DNA of 64,000 nucleotides from Lingula anatina (Eukaryota > Animalia > Brachiopoda), in the NCBI GenBank assembly GCA_051362555.1, contig CM120644.1:21412534-21476533 (forward strand), written 5' to 3'. The notes under the pieces are model-generated. The model saw only the letters and a list, made by a program, of their open reading frames with translations. It ran no database searches and had not been told where the DNA came from. Positions 2,380 to 64,000 of the stretch are shown one piece after another. Made by a program: the position numbers and the translations under genes. Numbering within the stretch: position 1 is the first letter of the stretch; each line of letters opens with the position of its first letter.

Positions 2380-2515
2380 TCCATTCCGTTCTATGTAGAT
2401 CAATCCAACTCTGCTGAATGCAATCAGTTTAACAGATTAACACACCTCCTGTTGTTTCAAACTTTCTTGTATAATCACCACCTTTTCTGTATTCTACCAA
2501 ACGCCAGGAAGAGGT
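2380..2515 (+). repeat. Dispersed repeat fragment, second copy at ~26200-26342
   Basis: Both loci share the blocks TCAATCCAACTC...GCTGAATGCAAT...ATTAACACACCTCCT...TTTTCTGTATT...GCCAGGARGAGG. Confidence 0.65.
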
Positions 2516-2988
2516 GTAACAATTTGAAATATCAATTTCCGAAGAAAAAATATTTGATACGAATGGAATTTCATTTCTTTCATTTCATAAAATATGTTAT
2601 TCGAGTGCTGTATGTGAAATAATGATGTGATGTATGATATATGTTGAAATCTTGTATATGTTAATATTGACAGCATGAAATGACAGGAGGATATTGGGGA
2701 GGTAGAATATAACTGTTATAACTTGTGCATGACAGTACAGACATGCGTTATGATAACTGGTTGTATGATGCAAAGTGAAAAAAATCAATTTCAATAAAAT
2801 ACTTCGGTAAAATATAGGCATAGCGTATCTTCACGGCGTTTGTGCTGACGTGTTAAAATATTGCACGGAATTTACAGGGATAAGTGGTATTTTTCTCCAA
2901 CTAATCAACCCTTCTTTCCTGCCACTGGCCAAAACTCTGAAAAAATCTGGGATAATTTAATAAACGCCTTTGTTATCATGACCAGGTT

Positions 2989-2992
2989 CCAC

Positions 2993-3070
<78 letters not shown>
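2989..3070. repeat. (CA)n microsatellite
   Basis: About 80 bp of CA repeats with two short A-rich interruptions. Confidence 0.95.
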
Positions 3071-3078
<8 letters not shown>

Positions 3079-3184
3079 TCGCAAGTTTATCTGTCATTGT
3101 GAAGGCAAATGAAGACTACACCATCGCACATTCATATATGATCACATGATTTAAAGTTTATAAAGTTTTAGTCTGCAGCTGATT

Positions 3185-3198
3185 CCAGCAGATGGCGC
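3185..3198 (+). promoter_or_regulatory. CTCF-like binding motif
   Basis: CCAGCAGATGGCGC matches the bilaterian CTCF core CCASYAGRKGGCRS. Motif match only. Confidence 0.4.
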
Positions 3199-3966
3199 CA
3201 TAGTTCGCTCAGGTCGGTCACGTATACTAAACTCTGTTCAGATGAAAACGTGCAATTGATCATAACCAGTGACGTAAATAATGTTTCGTGTGAGATAATA
3301 CACTGTCACCCAAGTGATATATTGTGTGTGGGGGGGGGGTGTTAAGGTTTGGGTTTAATTTTATCAATGGCGTGTTTTGAAATATATCAAACACAAATGC
3401 GTCCTATGCATTTTTATAGCAATAAATTGTCAATGAAGGTTCACGTAACAGATATTGATGATAATTGAGTAAACAATGCACCCAAAATATCCTGCCTCCT
3501 CCCCCATGAATCATATGTAACCAACACTCCAGAAAGAGATGTCATGTCTTCATCAGTTCTGAGTGACCAGGGAGTGGATGCGAGGCGGTCCAGATACTAA
3601 GTATACGAATATACAGCATCAGTTTCAACCGATTTAGTACAACACTGTAAGATATTAATGTTAGGTATTTGATGATATCTTATGTGTAATTCATTTTTGA
3701 TGCCTGAATGTTTAAAACAAGTTTGGAAATAACCCAATATATTCCCCATTTTGCTTCCTCCACATTTTCGCCAGCTCTTCAAATCTCATATGCACTTCAT
3801 GTTTAATTATTGAACTACGTTAGTAGATATAGCAGTAGGAGTAAACGTTTTGCATGTATTTTTCTCATTCTTTTTACAAAGGAGAGAGATAGTATATGTA
3901 GGAAAATAGGTAGTCATAAAACTTGTTTGCAAATCTCTTTAAGAAAATATATTCCTTTATCCAGCA

Positions 3967-4132
3967 AAGAGTGAAGTAACTTTTCTTCAATCAACAGCTC
4001 AATATTAAAATAGTTTACCTTTACCTCCAATATTTTGATCTTTAACAGAACATTCATCATTACTCACCTGGATAGCCTCATTCCCTGATTTCAACATTAA
4101 GCTGTTGAATGAAGAAAAATTACTTCATTCTT
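3967..4132. mobile_element. Small palindromic MITE-like element
   Basis: ~45-bp imperfect inverted arms: AGAGTGAAGTAACTTTTCTTCAATCAACAGCT... and ...AGCTGTTGAATGAAGAAAAATTACTTCATTCT. Confidence 0.6.
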
Positions 4133-5723
4133 GTAACGTAACACAGCTGATGAAATTCTCTGATTTGTCCAGTTAAAATGTATTAAATATTGGCAATATT
4201 ACATTGAATAATATTGTTTTTGCATATGTCTTGTGAGCTATATTTTTTTTAAATGTGTTCTTTTATCCAATAAAAATTAATGACAAATAGGGGATATAAC
4301 ATTGAATAATAATTTTTGCTGGTGTCAATTCTTAATTTCTTTTTCTTTAGTACTTTGAATTCAGCATACAAAATAATATCACTCTCTTTGAAAACATGGG
4401 TTTTAATTTCAGTTGAAAGGTATATTGTGCGCGTTACACCTTTACCTAGAAAATAACATCCTGAGAAATTCAACAATATCCCTTCATCACCAAAGCACAA
4501 TTTTATCCAACACCGATGAGAAAAGTACGATGAGTGTTCTAGATACCGTATACCTTGGTGATATATTGTTAAAATTTCAAGGAAAATTTATTGACTTAGT
4601 GGATCGAATTGCTGTAAACTGTTTTGTATACCGTATTACCTGAATTATTTATTGTTGAAATTTCTAGAAAAATAAAATGTTAGCTATATACGGGTCCTGC
4701 ACTCACTATGTGCCTTTAACGTTAGCTTTACTTTAAATGCTCAGGTAAGGGATTAGAATACATGGTTTCAATTTTCATAAATTTGTTCTTGTAATGATCC
4801 AATTTTCTGATGTCTAGGTTCGTAGTATGTACACCACGACTTTCGTAAAAATGTAACTGGACGATGATGTCTCTTAAACAAATCAAGATTCTGTGTAAAG
4901 ATGAAAATTTATGCCATTTTTCAAAATCTGCTCAACTTTGAAAAACCCCTTTTACTTTTATTAGTTCGCTCAGCATGTGCAAAAATGATTACTTTCTGCA
5001 TGTGCTATGTGAGGTTCATATATGTTCTGTGATAGCAAAACATTTGTCACGAGAGTTGTAGAATTGCTCATAATTGTAGGTATTTAGTTACTGAAATGAT
5101 TCTTATAATACCGTATACTATGTTTAGAAACAGAGAGAAAAAAAACAACGTCGGATCTGGAACATGTAAATGTGGTCAAATTGTGAAATTCTAAGCAATT
5201 TCTAGCATTATGTGTACTTGATAATGTTAGTCCAGAGTGGGTTTCCTTCTCGACTTATCTGAGGTTAAAGGTGGGAATGGATACTAGATCCGGCGTTGTT
5301 TTTAAGGGAAAAAGTCTTTTCTAAATATTTTCTTTAATATCAAACATAAGATCAAATATAAAAGGTTTAGTTTTATTTGTCAAATCAAATAGATTGAATT
5401 TGTTAAATCTTTAGTAAATTCTCATGAAGATCTCAATAACTTTGTTTATATCATCATATTCAAACCTTCAAAACTTAAAAAGAATCTCAAATGTAGTCGC
5501 ACAAACTGATGTTTAAAGATGATTAAAAATACATGCATATATGGAATGGAAATTTGTTTTGGTCTTAATAAAGAAATACCAAAATTATGCAATGCGTTGT
5601 AGTATTTTCAAGTTCATTGGTACCCACGGGTTGGGGTTCACTTTCCTGCTCGCGTACTTGGATAAAACCGAGTAATTCCTTTGGTTACTATAAGAAGAAA
5701 GTCTACCCGGGGAGGGTGGGTGG

Positions 5724-12055: not shown

Positions 12056-13899
12056 GACAGTAATTAACTTACAAAGTATTTCAAGAGAATATATACAACC
12101 TGTTTCCAAGACTAGTTCTCTTTCTGAACCCTTCAGCATGTATAATACGATACTCTAGATTACAAACTATTTTGTAAAAAGAAGAATTTAGTAAAAGAAA
12201 CCAATTTAAAAACAGATTCAAGTAAAGAAATATGACATTTGACGTTCTTCTGGAGGTAGCGCATGGGTCATTTCAAAATAAGAACAACCATAAAAATGTA
12301 TGCATGTACCTCAGTATGTGCGTGGAAGAAGGAAGAATAAATGTTTTTGCATTATGGGTGGAGTATTGACAGATTATTTTACTGTCAAAGTCTACTTTCT
12401 GTAAAATAATAAATAAATAAATAAATATATACTAATTCATCTTCATTAAAGGTGAAATTCGTGTTGCGGTTGAGGTAAGTAGTTTAAATTTTGCGGGGCT
12501 AAATGTTAGCAAGGGCCTGTGATAATAAGTGGATGGGAAACAGAAATATTACTGTAAACAAATATTTAACTGTGGCCAACTCTCTAGACGTTTTCATGTG
12601 CGTCGCCCATTCCTATTTAACAAACAAACCGCTACCTCGCTCATGTAAATATTCTGTTGGTTTATTAACAGTTCGATAAAAATATTTCAATCACAACCAA
12701 AACTGGGCAAGAAAGCTTTCTAGTCGTGCACGCGAGAACAAGCAGGTGTTTCATGGGAGCCAAGATGTTAAGTATTTCATATCAATTAATGTCAACAAAT
12801 TATTAAAAATTAATGCAAATATTATTTTATAATACGGAAGGAATGAACAACCTGTCAGCTAGGTTTAATATTTACACGAGAAAGGGAGTCACCGTGATAC
12901 TCCACACAGAGGAAGATGAGAATAATGCGGCAAGGTTTAACGGGTTAAATATTTAATGGAAATATAACTATAATCAAAATGTAATCATTAAAGGTGGGGT
13001 GCTAATGCGCCACAAAAACACCGGGATTGTACTGAAATAAGGGATTTACCCTCCAAAATATGTAGACAAAAATAAGGCACAAAGGAAAATGAACGCTTTA
13101 TGGTCAGAGCTCATCTGTGACCCTTGTAGAGAGTAATAATGTACCTTCTGAAATTACAGGGGTCTCTAGTACAGGTTGTTACAAAAGAAGGGATACACGC
13201 TTCTCAACACATTGGTGTAAACTTGGACATGATAATCAATTCGTAATTTTGTCCATGGTGTAAAATAGGATTCACAAACAAATATGATGGGTATGTAGGC
13301 AGAGAACGTGTTCCGTCTGATTATCTCAAATATCCGGGTCGATTCAGCAAATTTTAAATAGACTAGTAGCGACCCCTGTATGACAGAGTACACTGTCCGT
13401 ACACTGTGGCATGATTATACCTCTGTAAAATAACCATCCGTTATTTGTTACTTAGGAACCATTCCCAGACTCTATCGTACTAACTGTGGATCGATCTATC
13501 TCCAAGGGAATCTCGCTAAATTGCAATCAACTTAAGCGGCTTAGATGTCTATCACGCCTACTGAAACTGCCAGAGGGTAATTCATTATCGTTTTGCAGCT
13601 TCAGTAGGCGTGCCAGACATCTAAGCCGTTTAAGCTGAAAGCAATTTAGCAAGAAAACCCTTGGGGATGGATAGACCCTGTTAGATCGATCTAGGTATGG
13701 GAAGCCAGTCTTTATGTGTTGTTCACGGTGTATGTCATACAAGAGTGTTATCTTACATAATTCTTTGAGCCTATATAATTCGACCTCTTTAAATACTGTT
13801 ATTATTTTGTTATTCAAAGCGCTGGCCGTGGGCAGAAAAGGTACCTTTAGAAGGAAAGTGCTCCGAAGACAAATTTATAAGGTACTCAGTCTCGCCATT

Positions 13900-14280
13900 G
13901 AAGTATAGGGTATCTGGATCCTAGGTCTTGACGAAGTGTGCTGGAAGTTCAACAGCTCTGGCATTCAAATACAGCTTCCATTTCGATCAAAAGGTTTGAT
14001 ATTTCTGGGAAAGCATCTTTTCCTCAATTGTCTAGATCATCCTGATGGAAATTTATCTGTGTAGTCTGTTGATAAATTATAAGACTAAACTTTTTACTGT
14101 CTACTAGAACACTAAATCAAAGCTGCACCTGTTTTAAGAGTACAATGTGGTGTGAAACAGACATTCACCCATATGGGGACAGTATTAAAACTGAGACACT
14201 AATTTCAACTTCTTAGTAACACACACACACACACACACACTGAGGAAGGTCCCGGTGTGACCAAAAGGTTTGCTGGGCAT
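13900..14280 (+). mobile_element. Degenerate Penelope-like retroelement 3' end (GIY-YIG C-terminal relic plus hammerhead-like motif)
   Basis: Broken translation GKH..LNCLDHPDGNLSV...IHPYG, followed by (CA)n and CTGAGGA-AGGTC-CCGGTGT-GACC-AAAA (14240-14266). This resembles the CUGAnGA/stem II/GAAA hammerhead core of PLE termini. Confidence 0.45.
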
Positions 14281-14342
14281 AGCTTTAATTTAGTGTAGAA
14301 AGTGAAAAGTTTAATCTTATAACTTATTTAGATTATGCTGGT

Positions 14343-14452
14343 TATATAAAGTCAAGATGTTACTGCCTCTGTCACTGTTTTGCAGACTCAGTAATACGTA
14401 TGTAGACGATTGAAGATGTTATTTTGATTCATAATTATTTTTCTATATTTAG
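14343..14452 (+). promoter_or_regulatory. TATA box, initiator and probable short 5'UTR exon/intron of the cysteine-rich peptide gene
   Basis: TATATAAA at 14343-14350 and an Inr-like TCACTG about 30 nt downstream (14372). Donor GT at 14391 or 14398, and a pyrimidine-rich acceptor TTTTCTATATTTAG ending at 14452, 21 nt before the ATG. Confidence 0.6.
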
Positions 14453-14473
14453 AGCTATTAAATCTGAAAAGCA

Positions 14474-14631
14474 ATGAAAATTGCACTAGTTGTCGCTGCA
14501 TCGTTACTGGTGGTGTATTTGGTGGAAGCCACCAGTGAGAGATCAGGGAACGAAGTTCACTCTGTCCAGAAACGGTCTTCTCTCATGAAAGGTCTTGCTC
14601 GAGAAAGAGCATGCGGTTCCACTACCTGCAA
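14474..14631 (+). CDS. Secreted cysteine-rich prepropeptide, coding exon 1 (signal peptide, propeptide, first two Cys)
   Basis: MKIALVVAASLLVVYLVEA is a typical signal peptide. The propeptide has KR and RER basic sites. Phase-2 donor AA|GTACGT at 14632. Confidence 0.9.
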
Positions 14632-15045
14632 GTACGTATATCGGTATTTTTGGTATTGACTATAAAATAGCCAATTGAGAATAAAATATTCTGATTGTAA
14701 GATATTTTTTACATTTGTCGGGTGTTTATCAGTTATTTTTATTTGCTTTAGTATTATTTACAACGCGTAGTCCATTCAAATTTCTTAATATTATAGCTAC
14801 CCTTACACTGTTTATTGTGCCCCTCTCTGCAAGGAAAGTTCCGGAAAAATGATATTAAGTAACTTTATTAAAGGCTTAGAGTGCACGTTGGGCCTATATA
14901 TATAGCAAATAAATGAATGAAAATAAATAAAGACATAAATAAATGAATGACTTCCAGGTTGCTTGACGGGACCCGGAGACGTAACAGCCATCTTTATATT
15001 GGTACCCAGAACAAATAAACTGTTCAATGTATTTTCTACTTTCAG

Positions 15046-15256
15046 GGTGTCGGGCTGTGAGACCGGGGGTGGCTGGTGGTTTGTGTCGAATTCTGCGGGA
15101 TGGAACATCCGGGGCTCTGACCGCGGTTGCTGTGGCAACTACAGTGGCTGCTGCAAGCATGCTTCTGACGCGTGCTATGTACACGACTACACGTGTCGCT
15201 GTTGTATACCTAGCGTGTTTTGTGGACCCCAGTGTCAAGAAGAACCAGGCTGTTGA
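15046..15256 (+). CDS. Secreted cysteine-rich prepropeptide, coding exon 2 (toxin/defence-peptide-like, contains CxxHDxxC)
   Basis: Acceptor TTTTCTACTTTCAG ends at 15045 and its phase matches the donor (AA+G = Lys). The exon reads VSGCETGGGWWFVSNSAGWNIRGSDRGCCGNYSGCCKHASDACYVHDYTCRCCIPSVFCGPQCQEEPGC*. The spliced product is 122 aa with 14 Cys. Confidence 0.9.
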
Positions 15257-15539
15257 CATATATTATTACTTGAAACAAGCTCACATTTACCAGGCAATTC
15301 CCGGTCTTTTATTATCTAAAGGCTCCTAGGCATTGCTGACATTGGAAACGGTTCCTATTGAGATTGTGGTACTGTAGATTTTTCATTATATGGTATAAAC
15401 TTTGTGGAATCTACCTTCTGCATGGGCTTCTGAAAATGAAATGACTACATAAATGCAAGATCGCCGCCAAGATTGTAAATGAACTCACGTTAGATTAACA
15501 GTTTCAACGGTCATCATATATCATTATATGCATTACAAT

Positions 15540-15550
15540 AATAAAATAAA
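15540..15550 (+). terminator. Polyadenylation signal(s) of the peptide gene
   Basis: Overlapping AATAAAATAAA about 285 nt after the stop codon. Confidence 0.55.
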
Positions 15551-16155
15551 ACGAAGTTTGCCCGTAGATAATGCTTCATTGTGTTCTCTGACAAGTACCC
15601 GTGTATGGTATCATTGCTCCCTGCAAGATTTAAGCTCGAACATCAAATTATAAAGTACCCTGTATACAGAAAACTCCTGCCCTATACCAAGCAAATGTGT
15701 TAAGTAACAAAATATCTTCGTAAGGACTGCTATGCATCGCAGTCAAATTGAGCTCAACACCGAGAAATACTATCTATTTTGACCAAGATAAATTAATATG
15801 CAGTAGTTCTCAGATAAATGGCAAACATGATAAAATTAATAAACCACAATATATTAATTTCAAGTATAAAATTTACAGAATGTTCATTACACTTGACAAC
15901 TCATAATTTTAAAAAAGTTTATAAATAAGGATTGATAAGATATGTATTTACAAAAACGCCTAATTCGGAAGATAAAGTAAACTTTGTATCAAGGTAATTA
16001 ACAGTGCGTCCATTTTAATAGATGTATTGGCCATGTTTTATAAATAATGAGAAATGACCAGTTATTTTAAGACCAGTTCTTAAAAGACTGACAGTTACAT
16101 TTTTTCAGTGGATCACTACAACAAATGTATATGAAGGCATGCAGGTGATTGTAAC

Positions 16156-42330: not shown

Positions 42331-42714
42331 GTTATTTACTCTAGGACACCAGTAAGTACATTGTTATTTGTACCTTCATATGGCACTCGGCTGCGAAGGC
42401 GTAACAATTGACAGTCTTGAATATAAGACCTGCCCCTCCAGCAATCCACCTGAACGTTATGATATATTTGTACGTTTTTAATCCAGTATGATTAGATTTT
42501 TTTGAAAATGTGAGAAGCTTTACGAGACTTTGAACCCATTTGTTAACTAAAAATATCAATAAAAGTGCATTCACAATCATTTAGAGCAGGGCAAAGGCAG
42601 CAACTTCGACGCTATTGCATACCTGTCAGACGGAAGATCATTGCATCATTAAATTATTGTGTATCGCTACATAAACATCAAATACCATTGTATAACCATA
42701 GAAATGCATTGTTA

Positions 42715-43100
42715 CAGGTGTTTTGTGCCTGGTGTTCAAGCCATGGTCAAAGGTTCAAGAAAGGCACTGATATCTGGACCAAAGTCCGGTGCCAGACGTA
42801 TAGAGAAGACACTATTAAGAGGCATGAACAGTCCATCATGCATCAGGTGTCTCACAGTTATATACAGACAATCACAGGTGGATACAGACAATCACAGGTG
42901 GGAAACGAAGGCTTTCATTGGTGCACTGAAGTGCATGTGCTTTCTCATGAAGAAAGAAATCCCACACACTAGAAATTTTAAAGACCTCCTGGAGTTGTGC
43001 AAATTCATGGTTTGTCAGTACTTGCAAAAACTCTCAGAGTGTGCAGAAAAGTGCAATTACACCAGTGAAAGGACTATGCAGGAGATGGTGCTATATTGTG
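42715..43100 (+). pseudogene. hAT (ZNF862-like) transposase N-terminal relic
   Basis: VFCAWC...W....C...REDTIKRHEQSIMH (TTF-type zinc finger) and FLMKKEIPHTRNFKDLLEL...NYTSERTMQEMV. Confidence 0.75.
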
Positions 43101-43796
43101 GTCAGTTTTGTAAAAAGCTTTAAGTTTTGTTTTTTTAACTCGGTATAACAAATAAGTAAATGTAAATGTAACAGAAAAAGTAAAAAGTTTAAAAAGGCTT
43201 TTGCATAGAAAGAGTTATCGCAGAAAGGACTATCAAGTAAAATCTAAAAATCTGAAAAAAGAATTTTGTAGAAAGAAAACAATTTATTTACATCTGAAAG
43301 GGACACTTCTCACTTAACAATGAAATATATCACCTTATAATCGATTACATATTATGGAAACTAGAACAAAATATTCATTTGATCATGTTTATTTCTTCTT
43401 TGATGATGCCCTCGGTAGAATTGTAAATAAAGTTTTCCTGATAAATTTTCCTTCATTTATATATATGAAAGGAAAACATGAAGAAAGAAAAAACATTGTT
43501 AAGTATTGTAAGTCTTATATGTAAATACTGATAGGACAAACTGCATCATAGCACTTGCTCTGAAATAACTGAAACCAATGAATTAACTCGTTTTAAAACA
43601 TCAAACATTAAATCCCATCTACATTGGCACTTATGGCATGTACAGAGACAGTGATCACAAAAAATATACCTATGTGCCTAATCATTACTTGATTTTTTGC
43701 ACTTTCATCTTTATACTATGTTTTTTAATCATAATGAATTGACCATTTTTATAATAATCTAAAGATGTGCATCTAATTTTTTTTTAAAGAAACAAA

Positions 43797-44170
43797 TTGC
43801 AGGGGGTGGACAGCCTGGTGAGGAGACAGAGTGTGGACAGCCTGGTGAGGAGACAGAGGGTGGACAGCCTGGTGAGGAGACAGAGGGTGGACAGCCTGGT
43901 GAGGAGACAGAGGGTGGACAGCAAGATGAAGAAACAGGGGGTGGAGAGCCTGGTGAGGAGACAGAGACAGAGGGTGGACAGCCTAGTGAGGAGACAGAGA
44001 CAGGGTGGACAGCCTGGTGAGGAGACAGAGGGTGGACAGCAAGATGAAGAAACAGAGGGTGGACAGCCTAGTGAGGAGACAGAGACAGGGTGGACAGCCT
44101 GGTGAGGAGACAGAGGGTGGACAGCAAGATGAAGAAACAGAGGGTGGACAGCCCGGTGAGGAGACAGAGA
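43797..44170. repeat. 21/27-bp minisatellite GAGGGTGGACAGCCTGGTGAGGAGACA(GAGACA)
   Basis: Directly visible tandem array. An expanded paralog lies at 55140-55950. Confidence 0.95.
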
Positions 44171-44259
44171 ATGGGATATTCCTCACACCTATGCAGCAGA
44201 AAACCAGATTTGGCACCATATACAGATTCACAAGAAGGACAGTTCCAGTAGAAATGTGA

Positions 44260-44500
44260 ATTCATGGAGGATCTGAAAGCATGAAACAGAGTTTTTCCAA
44301 GTCTGGCAAACAAACGATGCTGCTGATCCCTCAGACATAGGAGAGGATTGAAATAACAGTCAAGTCTTTTACTGAATTGGAAAATCCTGTCATTTTTTCC
44401 AGAGTAAAGGCCGGGCCGAGTTGGTTTTGTCCTCTCAGACCAATATAATCAAGATCCATTAGAAAAATACTTCTCAATGCAAAGAAAATGCAGTTGGTGC
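44260..44500 (+). pseudogene. P-element/THAP9-like transposase C-terminal relic (copy A, truncated)
   Basis: MLLIPQT.ERIEITVKSFTEL...NQDPLEKYFSMQR. Confidence 0.75.
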
Positions 44501-55139: not shown

Positions 55140-55950
55140 GCAGAGGGTGGAGAGCAAGATGAAAAAACAGAGGGTGGACAGCCTGGTGAGGAGACAGAGA
55201 CAGAGGGTGGACAGCTTGGTGAGGAGACAGAGGGTGGACAGCCTGGTGAGGAGACAGAGGGTGGGCAGCCTGGTGAGGAGACAGAGGGTGGGCAGCCTGG
55301 TGAGCAGACAGAGACAGAGGGTGGACAGCCTGGTGAGGAGACAGAGGGTGGGCAGCCTGGTGAGGAGAGAGATGGTGGACAGCTTGGTGAGGAGACAGAG
55401 GGTGGGCAGCCTGGTGAGGAGACAGAGGGTGGACAGCCTGGTGAGGAGACAGAGACAGGGTGGACAGCCTGGTGAAGAGACGGAGGGTGGGCAGCCTGGT
55501 GAGGAGACAGAGACAGAGGGTGGGCAGCCTGGTGAGGAGACAGAGACAGAGGGTGGGCAGCCTGGTGAGGAGACAGAGACAGAGGCTGGGCAGCCTGGTG
55601 AGGAGACAGAGACAGAGGGTGGGCAGCCTGGTGAGGAGAGAGAGAGAGGGTGGGCAGCCTGGTGAGGAGACAGAGACAGAGGGTGGGCAGCCTGGTGAGG
55701 AGACAGAGACAGAGGGTGGGCAGCCTGGTGAGGAGACAGAGACAGAGGCTGGGCAGCCTGGTGAGGAGACAGAGACAGAGGGTGGGCAGCCTGGTGAGGA
55801 GACGGAGCTAGGGTGGACAGCCTGGTGAGGAGACAAGAGGGTGGACAGCCTGGTGAGGAGACAGAGACAGGGTGGACTGCCTGGTGAGGAGACAGAGGGT
55901 GGACTGCCTGGTGAGGAGACAGAGGGTGGACTGCCTGGTGAGGAGACAGA
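55140..55950. repeat. Expanded 21/27-bp G-rich minisatellite
   Basis: About 30 units of GAGGGTGG(A/G)CAGCCTGGTGAGGAGACA(GAGACA). Confidence 0.95.
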
Positions 55951-56039
55951 GAATGGGATACTCCCCACACCTATACAGCAGAAAACCAGATTTGGCACCA
56001 TATACAGATTCACAAGATGAACAGTTCCAGTAGCAATGT

Positions 56040-56330
56040 GAATTCATGGAAGATCTGAAAGCATGAAACAGAGTTTTTCCAAGTCTGGCAAACAAAAGAT
56101 GCTGCTGAGCCCTCAGACATAGGAGAGGATTGAAATAACAGTCAAGCCTTTTACTGAATCGGAAAATCCTGTCATTTTTCCAGAGTAAAGAAATTGGTTT
56201 TGTCCTCTCAGACCATTATAACCAAGATCCATTAGAACAATACTTCTCAATGCAAAGAAATGCTGGTGGTGCTAATGAAAATCCCAACATATCATCTTTC
56301 CACTTCAACACATCAGCCATTAAATATTGC
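56040..56330 (+). pseudogene. P-element/THAP9-like transposase C-terminal relic (copy B)
   Basis: MLLSPQT.ERIEITVK...NQDPLEQYFSMQRNAGGANENPN matches the QDxLExxFxxxRxxGGxxxNP catalytic-E motif. Confidence 0.85.
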
Positions 56331-59435: not shown

Positions 59436-59459
59436 ACACCTCCTGCCACCTTCTCTGCC

Positions 59460-60145
59460 ACCAGACACCCCCCCGCCACCACCACCACCAGACCACCCCC
59501 CCTGTCACCACCTCCACCACTAGACCGACCGCCCTTTCACCACCTCCACCACCAGACCACCCCCCCTGTCACCACCTCCACCACCAGACCACCCCCCCTG
59601 TCACCACCACCACCACCAGACCACCCCCCTGCCACCACCTCCACCACCAGACCACCCCCCCTGTCACCACCTCCACCACCAGACCCCCCCCTGTCACCAC
59701 CTCCACCACCAGACCACCCCCCCCGCCACCACCTCCACCACCAGACCCCCCCCTGTCACCACCTCCACCACCAGACCACCCCCCCTGTCACCACCACCAC
59801 CACCAGACCACCCCCCTGCCACCACCTCCACCACTAGACCGAGCCCCCCGCCACCACCTCCACCACCAGACCACCCCCCCCGCCACCACCTCCACCACCA
59901 GACCACCCCCCTGCCACCACCTCCACCACCAGACCACCCCCCCTGTCACCACCTCCACCACCAGACCACCCCCCTGCCACCACCTCCACCACTAGACCGA
60001 CCCCCCCGCCACCACCTCCACCACCAGACCACCCCCCCCCCGCCACCACCTCCACCACTAGACCGACCCCCCTGCCACCACCTTCACCACCAGATCGACC
60101 TCCCTGCCACCAACTCCACAACCAGACTGACCCCCCCTGCCACTG
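59460..60145. repeat. C-rich ~30-bp minisatellite (G-rich on the - strand)
   Basis: Units CCACCACCTCCACCACCAGACCACCCCCC(C)TG(T/C). Confidence 0.95.
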
Positions 60146-62559: not shown

Positions 62560-62830
62560 AGGCCTTCTCCATCCACACCACTGAGAGAGTGGTGCGGGCA
62601 CTGCAGTGTCAGCATAGCCAGCCAGCATTCCTAGGAGGGTTCACCTCTAAGGCCCAGCCCCTTGAAGTATCTTTGAACAAGCCGTTCAAAGGCCATCTTA
62701 GGAGGCTGTGGTCTGAGAGGATGCGTGAAGATGTCGCAGCTACAGAAGAGAACACTGACAAGTTGAAGACTGCTAGTAAGCAAGAGATAGTTGATTGGAT
62801 CAAGGCTGCCTGGGACCATGTCCCCACAAC
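62560..62830 (+). pseudogene. pogo-type DDE_1 transposase C-terminal relic
   Basis: AFSIHTTERV...GGFTSKAQPLEVSLNKPFKGHLRRLW...SKQEIVDWIKAAWD. Confidence 0.85.
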
Positions 62831-63439
62831 CAGTGCCAGACAGCAATGTACTGATGCCATACAGTAACAGCGATGGAGAGGATTTAATGGGTTTTCTTCC
62901 AGATGATCCTTTTCAGGCATTTTTTATACGTAACATTGGACAAGTTTGAATTTAAAATATTTTTTTAAATAATAAAATATTTTTTGAGTGAGGAGGAAAC
63001 ATTAGGAACTGAATACAGACTTTGGTACAGTGGACAGTCCTTGGAAAGTGTGAAAAAGTCATGTGTCTGTAGTACATGTGGTGGCAATGTTATTTTAGTT
63101 AATTGAAAGTAAAGAAAAACAACAAGGTTGGGCCAGTCAAATGTGGTGGCTTTGTTATGTTTGCAACGGCATTCCAGAAGAGGACTGGACCTCTACTTCA
63201 AGAAAAACAGGACAATTTTTTTAAGTGAACAAGGCCAGCTAGTGTACTGGGAATGCACATAATAGAAGTTCATATACCTCTGCAGAGAAAGTGGTTACCT
63301 GTCCATGCCGCCACCAGTATGTAGTCATAGCTGGATGGAGCATACACAAGCCTTGGGAGACAAGTCTTGAGAACTGGCAGGTGATAACATGATGGCTGCT
63401 GCTATTTGTGTGACGAAGCTTCTTCGGGGAAGTGATGTA

Positions 63440-63805
63440 TGTAGACATTGACAAGATTGTAGACTGTGGTATAACAATTGATGGCTCTTGGCAGACAAGG
63501 AGCAATTAGAAACATGGATTTGTGGCCGCAATCTCAGTAGACACTGGCAAAGTGCTAGACATGCTTTACATGTGTAGGACCTGCAGGATTTGTGGTATTT
63601 CAACAGCAAACTGCACACCGCCCTGGATGAAATGGAATTTCACATAAAACATTTTTCTCAGTGCCCTCAATCCAAGACAGAATGGGCACAAGCCATGGAA
63701 GCAGAGGGTGTGACTTATACAGCAGCTAGATCAAAGGAGCTCCATGGACTTAGATACAATCCCTTCATGGGTGATGAGGACAGTTTGGAATTCTGGCGAG
63801 TACAG
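63440..63805 (+). pseudogene. Kolobok-type (Mutator-like fold) DDE transposase relic
   Basis: CGITIDGSWQTR...HGFVAAISVDTGKVLD and AMEAEGV...ARSKELHGLRYNPFMGDEDS match the DGSW..RG / ME..G...RS...LRY...GDGDS motifs. Confidence 0.8.
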
Positions 63806-64000
63806 AGGGAGTTATGGCAAGAAGTGCCTCTTTTGCAAAAAATTTGCTGGGTTAGTGTGACCTTTTCCTTGTTAGTTATGGCAATGGCAAAAGAATTTAG
63901 GTGGATTTAACAACTGCTACCTTAGATGAATTAATGAGAGGACCTGGCATGGGTTAGAAGCGTGCTGAAGCCCTTCTAGATTTCAGAGAGCAGGGTATCT

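Follow-up and report, generated by a model that had tools for sequence, protein, structure and literature searches.

A spliced gene of the brachiopod Lingula anatina carries a small cysteine-rich His-Asp domain shared with putative bacterial toxin-immunity loci

Class II microcins and pore-forming colicins are exported toxins encoded beside a small hydrophobic inner-membrane immunity gene. Polymorphic toxin systems are recognized by a toxin-then-immunity gene order, small adjacent genes, orphan cassettes and tip exchange, as set out in the analysis of Zhang et al. 2012 (PMC3482391), which also offers precedents for membrane-embedded immunity in Imm-CdiI and Imm17, with two transmembrane helices. 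Domains of this kind can end up in animals: tick Dae2 is a domesticated bacterial effector with demonstrated antibacterial activity (bioRxiv 10.1101/2020.04.10.036376), and Min-Wnt/Lipocone toxins occur in rotifers and Saccoglossus, where an antibacterial role is predicted (PMC12419801). Here we analyze a gene at positions 14343–15550 of a 64,000-nucleotide stretch of Lingula anatina DNA (assembly GCA_051362555.1, contig CM120644.1; hereafter, the window). Its product is a 122-residue, secreted-type protein with 14 cysteines, whose Cys/His-Asp domain recurs in bacteria at the tip of exported-type proteins. Our working reading, held with little better than even confidence, is that a bacterial toxin tip with membrane immunity was transferred to animals, and that the processed domain, secreted by Lingula, is an antibacterial whose His-Asp pair would be its means of attacking the bacterial envelope.

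A phmmer search over 1.84 billion representatives returned 107 clusters sharing the Cys/His-Asp domain at E ≤ 1e-3, ruling out a lineage-specific orphan. Eight of the ten top hits carry names, drawn from Mercenaria, Mactra, three species of Haliotis, Mizuhopecten, Pecten, Glandiceps and Amphiura, and the animal groups with the domain comprise a brachiopod, bivalves, abalones, a hemichordate (acorn worm) and a brittle star. We aligned 95 of the 107 proteins, omitting 12 long or odd ones. Cys81, Cys96, Cys103, Cys106, Cys112 and Cys116 (Lingula numbering) are invariant in 95/95, and His99 and Asp100 are each present in 94/95. The surrounding core is conserved almost as tightly: G76 in 92, G80 in 91, C82 in 94, G83 in 90, N84 in 87, Y85 in 93, G87 in 90 and C89 in 94 of the 95 proteins. 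The Cys that follows the His-Asp pair sits at HD+3 throughout (95/95), and CxxHDxxC holds in 8/8 named animals, 42/44 unnamed CC-type proteins and 50/50 GTDB rows. P0067 and P0054 are the only aligned members with one residue of the pair lost (His to Lys or Asp to Gln) and may be inactive copies.

The Lingula protein elaborates on this core. Its N-terminal A/S-C extension and 14-Cys count are common to 13 proteins, including those of scallop, abalone, hemichordate and brittle star, and the bacterial set has eight invariant cysteines in a smaller core. Judged from the alignment, the predicted seven-disulfide framework is an animal elaboration of the smaller core common to bacteria. An AlphaFold2 model computed with the alignment (mean pLDDT 85) places C96, H99 and D100 on a predicted helix at residues 94–102, followed by only a 4-residue helix. 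Fourteen long CC-type proteins (P0009, P0011, P0013, P0014 and ten others) carry the domain and then an acidic low-complexity tail with a [DE]GSG[DE]-type motif.

The initial annotation could assign the protein to no named family, and wider searches agreed. Pfam left the shared domain unmatched in 106 proteins, and at E ≤ 10 it returned no family for P0001, P0002 or P0003, a comparison that covers only families with a Pfam model. The sole above-cut-off Pfam matches were nucleotidyl-transferase families at the N-terminus of P0093, apparently a chimeric record. None of 27 family proteins scored above cut-off against NCBIfam, PADLOC gave no informative match for six proteins, and PDB sequence searches gave none either (best E 0.19). 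Fold searches, run on whole precursors and insensitive for so small a domain, returned no clear match. The motif strings and accessions were unmatched in the literature covered, most subscription papers and supplements lying outside that coverage. By these comparisons the domain family is undescribed, and no named family appears to fit it.

Bacterial members were collected by scanning GTDB genomes for the exact core motif, a requirement that makes the resulting count a lower bound. Of 101 pattern matches, 53 were confirmed as loci; by title, 51 are Bacteroidota-type, one is an Acidobacteriota metagenome-assembled genome (MAG) and one is a Microcoleus contig. A further weak Acidobacteriota match, L055, proved to be an opposite-strand artefact. 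The distribution is sporadic: besides the genome at the center of the sample, 1 of 400 sampled Bacteroidota carried the domain, and searches of JGI metagenome contigs and IMG/VR confirmed no relatives. Full-length bacterial products are about 280–490 residues long, with the domain at or near the C-terminus after an N-terminal domain of ~200 residues. By a crude hydropathy rule, a hydrophobic N-terminal signal was present in 33 of 42 full-length open reading frames (ORFs), 18 of them lipoprotein-like. The model of P0041 (pLDDT 87) predicts a five-stranded sheet, a helical bundle, and then a small domain with the same helix pattern. Four loci (L025, L028, L030 and L057) encode an extra C-terminal extension of ~100 residues after the Cys domain, and L030 has two paralogues.

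Directly 3′ of 48 of 55 domain copies lies an ORF of 75–125 residues with two to three hydrophobic segments, 46 of them with three; the same arrangement followed 2 of 262 other ORFs of at least 200 residues in the same loci, which are not independent draws. These partners fall into two families, with an hhalign probability of 0.8% between them, and 23 scanned partners matched no Pfam or NCBIfam family above cut-off. Representatives such as L001:6785-7060 and L011:2757-3071 are three-segment membrane proteins of 90–116 residues; one family has an E-x-x-T-I-P motif and the other a conserved Trp after the first segment. A complex prediction for the L011 domain and its partner, in which alignments were not used, scored 0.25 against a mark of 0.34.

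Several loci show the pieces moving as units. In L024, a Fluviicola MAG (positions 2479-5052), a full gene and its partner are followed by two orphan domain-plus-partner cassettes, each beginning with a repeated copy of the stretch that immediately precedes the domain. No other locus of the family shows the polymorphic-toxin type as clearly. A partner-domain fusion and two additional partners occur in L043, and lone partner copies in L005 and L018. L020 and L033 are identical at 197 of 214 positions before the domain and at 30 of 47 within it, with partners of different families; this was the one clear pair of five compared, the other four lacking the swap pattern. Partner type clusters on the tree: it changes 7 times, versus an average of 10.7 in shuffled data, and 5 of 500 shuffles came out that low. 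Among 381 genomes, the center genome alone was matched by the carrier profile, too few for a carrier-tip comparison. In L001, L005 and L036 (marine Flavobacteriaceae), other repeated ORFs and fragments, grouped as cluster c8, flank the gene; these elements may be another cassette-type system housed in the same island. Given this organization, we consider it likely that the bacterial pair is a toxin with its immunity protein.

The relationship between the bacterial and animal proteins extends beyond the tip. A hidden Markov model (HMM) of the N-terminal domain, built solely from 44 bacterial ORFs and run on the 107 proteins, matched Amphiura P0012 (E 4.4e-10) and, weakly, Glandiceps P0010 (E 1.6e-3); both genes lie on chromosome-scale contigs. 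Because a bacterial N-terminal HMM matches brittle-star and hemichordate proteins, bacteria-animal homology, as read from these profiles, covers both domains. Lingula and the named molluscs have no N-terminal domain, and their tip stands behind a signal peptide and a short pro-segment. Immediately ahead of the tip, RxxR or KR sites occur in several of the long CC-type forms, suggesting that the N-terminal domain is removed. It is thus reasonably probable that this domain serves as a pro-region or carrier and is cleaved away before the tip acts.

To place these forms, we built an unrooted tree of 70 rows and 272 columns, omitting the near-duplicates L007 and L010 and short ORFs. The 14 long CC-type forms group with L049, P0052 and P0068 (support 99/87) and with P0074 (98/95), apart from the Bacteroidota. 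CC-type monophyly was not rejected by an approximately unbiased (AU) test under LG+G4, the simpler of two models (p 0.72). In a tree of the domain only (78 columns), the rows nearest Lingula are P0007 and the hemichordate protein, with no starred support. P0105, P0119-P0127, P0036 and P0101 form an expanded group whose members keep both domains intact and have furin-type sites as well as signal peptides of eukaryote-like type; they lie on ENA contigs of up to 2.7 Mb. An early-branching animal is their possible source and, if so, would give a date for the transfer.

Movement from bacteria to animals, a direction we regard as probable, is favored by operon context and by how broadly the bacterial members are spread. 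Neither partner HMM matched anywhere in the 64-kb window at E ≤ 0.01. The Lingula gene has the features of a host gene, namely an intron, a predicted signal peptide and spliced reads, with transposon remnants and repeats around it. Bacterial contamination is ruled out by the intron, the spliced poly-A reads and the RefSeq model.

The gene model comprises the following features, all on the plus strand and in window coordinates.

14343–14349, plus strand: TATA box, TATATAA, from sequence.
14372–14376, plus strand: candidate initiator (Inr), TCACT, its A 31 nt past the first T of the TATA box, from sequence.
14398–14452, plus strand: possible 55-nt intron in the 5′ untranslated region (UTR), GTATGT..TTTAG, suggested by sequence only.
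14474–14631, plus strand: coding exon 1, with signal peptide, pro-segment, KR33-34 and a predicted helix toward Cys47 and Cys52, from sequence, RefSeq match and read depth.
14474–14530, plus strand: predicted signal peptide, residues 1–19, by hydropathy, with a putative cleavage site.
14570–14575, plus strand: dibasic KR33-34, a likely convertase site judging from relatives with the same 14-Cys framework.
14632–15045, plus strand: 414-nt GT..AG intron, phase 2, inside the Lys53 codon, spanned by RNA reads.
15046–15256, plus strand: coding exon 2, with 12 Cys, the Cys/His-Asp domain and a TGA stop, from sequence, conservation and read depth.
15113–15154, plus strand: conserved core, residues 76–89 (G-S-D-x-GCCGNY-x-G-C-C), common to bacteria, from the 95-protein alignment.
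15182–15187, plus strand: His99-Asp100 on the predicted helix 94–102, each 94/95, from alignment and AlphaFold2 model.
15540–15550, plus strand: two overlapping predicted AATAAA polyadenylation signals (starts 15540 and 15545), from sequence.

The initial annotation had described an intact gene, and its TATA box, ATG, exons, GT..AG intron and AATAAA agreed base by base. With 11 occurrences of the TATA-plus-initiator pattern in the window, the promoter call is weak by itself. Two upstream ATGs (14400 and 14416) lie inside the candidate 5′-UTR intron, and splicing out 14398–14452 would possibly take away both. Translation starts at the ATG at 14474, and the donor AA|GTACGT follows 14631. The product, 122 residues and a stop, bears out the proposed framework C-C-C-CC-CC-C-C-CC-C-C-C, with Cys at 47, 52, 57, 81, 82, 88, 89, 96, 103, 105, 106, 112, 116 and 122. 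With 12 Cys, exon 2 ranks top among the 173 open frames of 69 codons in the window; the next frames have 11 and 10, mostly in tandem repeats. A search with exon 2 returned a single protein, Lingula anatina RefSeq XP_013406099.1 (LOC106170673, 122 residues), an automatically annotated uncharacterized protein with no function given. The window model is identical to it at 119 of 122 residues, differing at residues 32, 59 and 111, with one difference in the exon 1 part. The 64-kb window holds no second copy or paralogue of the gene.

The secreted-type character proposed for the product is supported by the mean hydropathy of residues 3–17 (2.9), the hydropathy profile being the basis of the 1–19 signal-peptide call. 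The proposed cut at RER, giving a 77-residue mature domain, was not upheld. RER is not conserved as a maturation site in relatives, and we rejected it as such: the residue before A/S-C is basic in 7 of the 13 same-framework proteins. A KR or RR pair stands ~7–17 residues before A/S-C in 6 of the 13. Cleavage after KR33-34, at least as likely as the RER cut, would yield an 88-residue mature peptide that retains the predicted helix.

We next turned to expression. RNA runs were selected by species label and raw reads were compared over 14200–15700, with seven of nine runs used. That interval drew 372 reads in run X1 and 356 in X2, lying on both exons apart from small piles at 14251–14352 and 14914–14964. 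The joint 14631–15046, with GT..AG ends, was crossed by 8 reads in X1 and 6 in X2; the same joint with one differing first base (14631 to 15047) was crossed by 20 and 15. In junction reads the first mate was always on the minus strand, which is sense under the usual stranded-library convention, and by that convention the exon reads are sense as well. No read depth was found at 14353–14454, so the start site is a candidate only. Read identity was mostly 90–95%, reaching at least 99% in 0 of 372 reads (X1) and 2 of 356 (X2). Because they are mostly 90–95% alike, the reads come from other alleles or paralogues: they show that closely similar alleles or paralogues carrying this species label are spliced here, not that the exact window allele is. 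At this level, the RNA-seq check proposed for the 14631/15046 junction came out positive, with sense reads spanning it in both runs. The gene is real, two-exon and spliced. At 14914–14964, antisense-oriented X1 and X2 reads match ~35–50 nt within the intron and then run into unrelated sequence; this pile is probably a short repeat common to another transcript.

Exon 2 drew 400 reads in X1, 438 in X3, 3 in X8 and none in X5, with depth reaching about 260–370 in X1, X2 and X3. X4 had 6 reads (none on exons) and X7 had 35, nearly all in an upstream repeat; the low counts in X4, X5, X7 and X8 are informative only if those runs are shown to contain the organism. Expression is strong in all three runs from one study, against near zero in the two others used. 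Loose read ends on exon 2 indicate at least three variants. Among 22 listed single-site differences (depth near 300), 11 were synonymous and 11 were not, and none altered any Cys, the GCCGNY loop, or the His99 or Asp100 codons. Changes among the expressed copies cluster at variable family positions. The run-to-run differences and the variants fit a regulated small gene family.

Secreted phospholipases A2 (PLA2s) of groups I, II and III have the motif DxCCxxHDxC and a Ca2+ loop of the form YGxxCG or WCGxG, and PLA2s bear a second catalytic Asp on a long antiparallel helix. The initial annotation had suggested both that the His-Asp pair matters and that the protein is PLA2-like, and these two suggestions part company. 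The pair does matter, being conserved at 94/95 for each residue, with no listed change at either codon in the expressed variants. Loss of the dyad in homologs had been named beforehand as the observation that would speak against a PLA2 link, and the dyad was conserved. PLA2-like membership was not borne out. The DAC Asp is present in 8/95, the loop is GCCGNY, the spacing is HDxxC, and profile searches found no PLA2. Point by point, CxxHD on a helix is shared (C96 in 95/95, on the predicted helix 94–102). DxCCxxHDxC is absent, since Asp94 is found in 8/95, position 95 is not Cys, and the next Cys is at HD+3 rather than in HDxC. In place of YGxxCG or WCGxG the family has the conserved loop G-x-x-x-G-C-C-G-N-Y-x-G, which could still bind metal. 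The motif CxxHxxxYxN, listed for Tox-PLA2/PF09056 in PMC3482391, is lacking as well: His is followed by D-x-x-C, without the conserved Tyr or Asn.

That the gene nonetheless encodes a true, extremely reduced secreted PLA2 of PLA2 superfamily descent, serving Lingula lipid digestion or signalling, is in our view unlikely. It draws on the CxxHD motif on a predicted helix with a Gly/Cys loop 17 residues ahead of His, and on the best local alignment to bacterial PF09056 proteins, which falls on that motif. Three of four listed Atlas language-model feature rows had a family or name, and two were PLA2-labelled (0.77 and 0.76), below the 0.9 bar and so leads only. Lingula has 21 PF00068 domains according to a supplementary table of its genome paper (PMC4595640). 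Weighed against this are the profiles: no Pfam PLA2 family for the 95 members at E ≤ 10 among the 25 of 52 families shown, none for 106 proteins at E ≤ 0.01, and no hit of the domain profile to PDB sequences at E ≤ 10. An hhalign comparison with PF09056-like proteins gave a probability of 0.2%, on four sequences only and of a kind that a ~50-residue remote relative could escape. The rarity of Asp before Cys96 (8/95) and a model with only a 4-residue helix after the His-Asp helix, where a long antiparallel helix would be expected, also speak against it. L060, which has two stops, was omitted from this comparison. PF05826 was absent from the 151 cyanobacterial genomes scanned.

The mechanism that we propose for the toxin-tip reading runs as follows. 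In bacteria, the protein would be exported as a lipoprotein or Sec substrate, its disulfides would form, and the tip would be released. The tip would then turn on a neighbouring cell and attack either its inner membrane or a membrane-bound precursor there, with kin protected by the small membrane protein. A target at the inner membrane or its periplasmic face is fairly likely, given a domain that depends on disulfides and a partner integral to the membrane. In Lingula, secretion and convertase cleavage would precede action on bacteria, and we put antibacterial activity of the Lingula peptide at an even chance. An invariant His-Asp adjoining a Gly-rich loop suggests a general base and a metal ligand. 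Our leading guess for the chemistry, held more tentatively and at well below even confidence, is that His99 may be the general base, and Asp100 and the loop carbonyls may bind a divalent metal, hydrolysing membrane lipid by PLA2-type chemistry on a different scaffold. The hint toward such chemistry comes from the language-model features (0.76–0.77, under the tool's bar), with which the sequence profiles do not agree.

Several observations weigh against this reading. On the phylogenetic side, the tree has no root, only 2 of its 14 CC-type rows come from named animals, and a mixture model unites those 14 rows in just 4% of bootstrap trees. Acidobacteriota L049, the closest bacterial relative of the animal-type group to be verified in a genome, is without a partner. 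Partner linkage is also incomplete: 7 of 55 copies have none within the distance searched, none was detected at L021, L028, L030, L032, L042 or L049, the L014 partner is 175 nt away, and the L057 partner gene lies upstream. Within the bacterial loci compared, the N-terminal carrier was never seen with an unrelated toxin tip, a departure from classical polymorphic carriers. Two CC-type relatives, P0067 and P0054, have lost His or Asp. Typical membrane-lytic antimicrobial peptides are cationic, and the predicted mature part is not (4–5 basic versus 6 acidic residues). Lastly, the 14 long CC-type proteins with acidic Gly-Ser-Gly motifs lack the N-terminal domain, and the four that are named are molluscan; such tails would point to matrix anchoring rather than free killing.

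These points bear on what else the proteins might be. If the bacterial pair were a ligand with its receptor or export helper, acting in signalling or kin recognition, and the animal protein a non-enzymatic signalling peptide, then a small, disulfide-rich domain with prohormone-like processing sites, a membrane-protein partner and the clustering of partner type on the tree (7 changes versus 10.7) would all be natural. Orphan tip-plus-partner cassettes, extra or lone partners (L005, L018, L043) and replacement by an unrelated partner are, however, expected of immunity genes and not of receptors, and an invariant His-Asp amid variable surface positions looks catalytic or metal-binding. We judge this alternative improbable. 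The initial annotation had framed the product as a toxin or defence peptide. Since the domain is old and sits, in bacteria, in toxin-immunity-like cassettes, the toxin reading moves from animal venom to an antibacterial weapon. A venom-type or anti-predator toxin acting on ion channels could draw on the signal/pro/Cys-rich layout and the several expressed variants, yet the family is common to bacteria and to filter- and deposit-feeding animals, and it matches no Pfam venom or defensin family. Lingula feeds on suspended matter and is not known to have a venom apparatus, and we regard a venom role as very improbable.

The acidic tails matter most for the possibility that the animal proteins were re-purposed as extracellular-matrix or shell/mucus components, with His-Asp binding Ca2+ or another metal structurally. 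Glycosaminoglycan attachment sites resemble the [DE]GSG[DE]-type motif, the tails are long, and the named hosts are mostly mineralising marine invertebrates. The Lingula protein, on the other hand, has no acidic tail and ends at Cys122, and variation among the expressed copies is concentrated at variable family positions. Nor was the motif found in the one searched supplementary file of the Lingula genome paper (PMC4595640). A matrix role, too, is a low-probability explanation, on a par with signalling, and the transferred bacterial toxin tip remains our preferred account.

The window itself is AT-rich, repeat-laden animal DNA. Upstream of the gene, at 13462–13703, lies a MITE-like inverted repeat of ~200 bp with 78% identity. 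Transposon remnants occur at 42547–43123, 62562–62867 and 63578–63910, with a DDE_1 match above cut-off (E 2e-6) and weak Mutator-like and zinc-finger matches below it. Repeat tracts at 43800–44500, 55141–56272, 47033–49072/57472–59462 and 59442–60143 include two copies of minisatellite arrays with 27/33-bp units, a dispersed duplication of 2 kb at 90% identity, and an array of a CCA-rich 32-bp unit whose translation is a Pro-rich frame.

If the toxin-tip reading is true, environmental Bacteroidota would have a toxin-immunity family that is new, animals of two superphyla would offer a new candidate for domestication of a bacterial weapon, and the His-Asp domain itself would stand out for its very small size. 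Unannotated genes of clams, scallops and abalones would gain a function as well. The bacterial pairs open that function to toxicity-and-rescue testing, which is rare for orphan Cys-rich invertebrate peptides. A bolder version, which we hold to be doubtful, is that an undescribed disulfide-knit His-Asp hydrolase fold of ~50 residues, independent of PLA2 and far smaller, arms new bacterial lipoprotein toxins with membrane immunity. That fold would have been captured before the lophotrochozoan-deuterostome split and kept for more than 500 million years as secreted antibacterial enzymes in marine invertebrates, Lingula having the stripped-down form.

Compared with known systems, the family is closest in layout to polymorphic toxins. 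Its bacterial members are likewise exported, with a variable C-terminal domain, a small single-domain gene 3′, orphan cassettes and sporadic spread, and this layout carries a strong genomic signature of toxin-immunity. The carrier differs in being short (~300 residues) and lipoprotein- or Sec-type, without Rhs or filament repeats. The tip is ~50 residues, disulfide-rich and of no known family, with one tip family on the carrier, and the two unrelated partner families mostly have three hydrophobic segments. A small hydrophobic immunity gene beside an exported toxin recalls microcins and colicins and hints at an inner-membrane target, but here a compact domain with disulfides and a His-Asp pair forms the tip. 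With secreted PLA2s (groups I/II/III/XII and Tox-PLA2/PF09056) the family shares C-x-x-H-D on a predicted helix, a preceding Gly/Cys loop, secretion and disulfide richness; it lacks DxCC, the YGxxCG/WCGxG loop and CxxHxxxYxN, is about half the size, and has no long second helix in the model. Like Dae2 and Min-Wnt, it presents a bacterial conflict domain as a secreted stand-alone invertebrate protein. Its domain, however, is unrelated to theirs and its activity putative, it gained extra disulfides in animals, and it spans lophotrochozoans and ambulacrarians, which would imply an older transfer or several.

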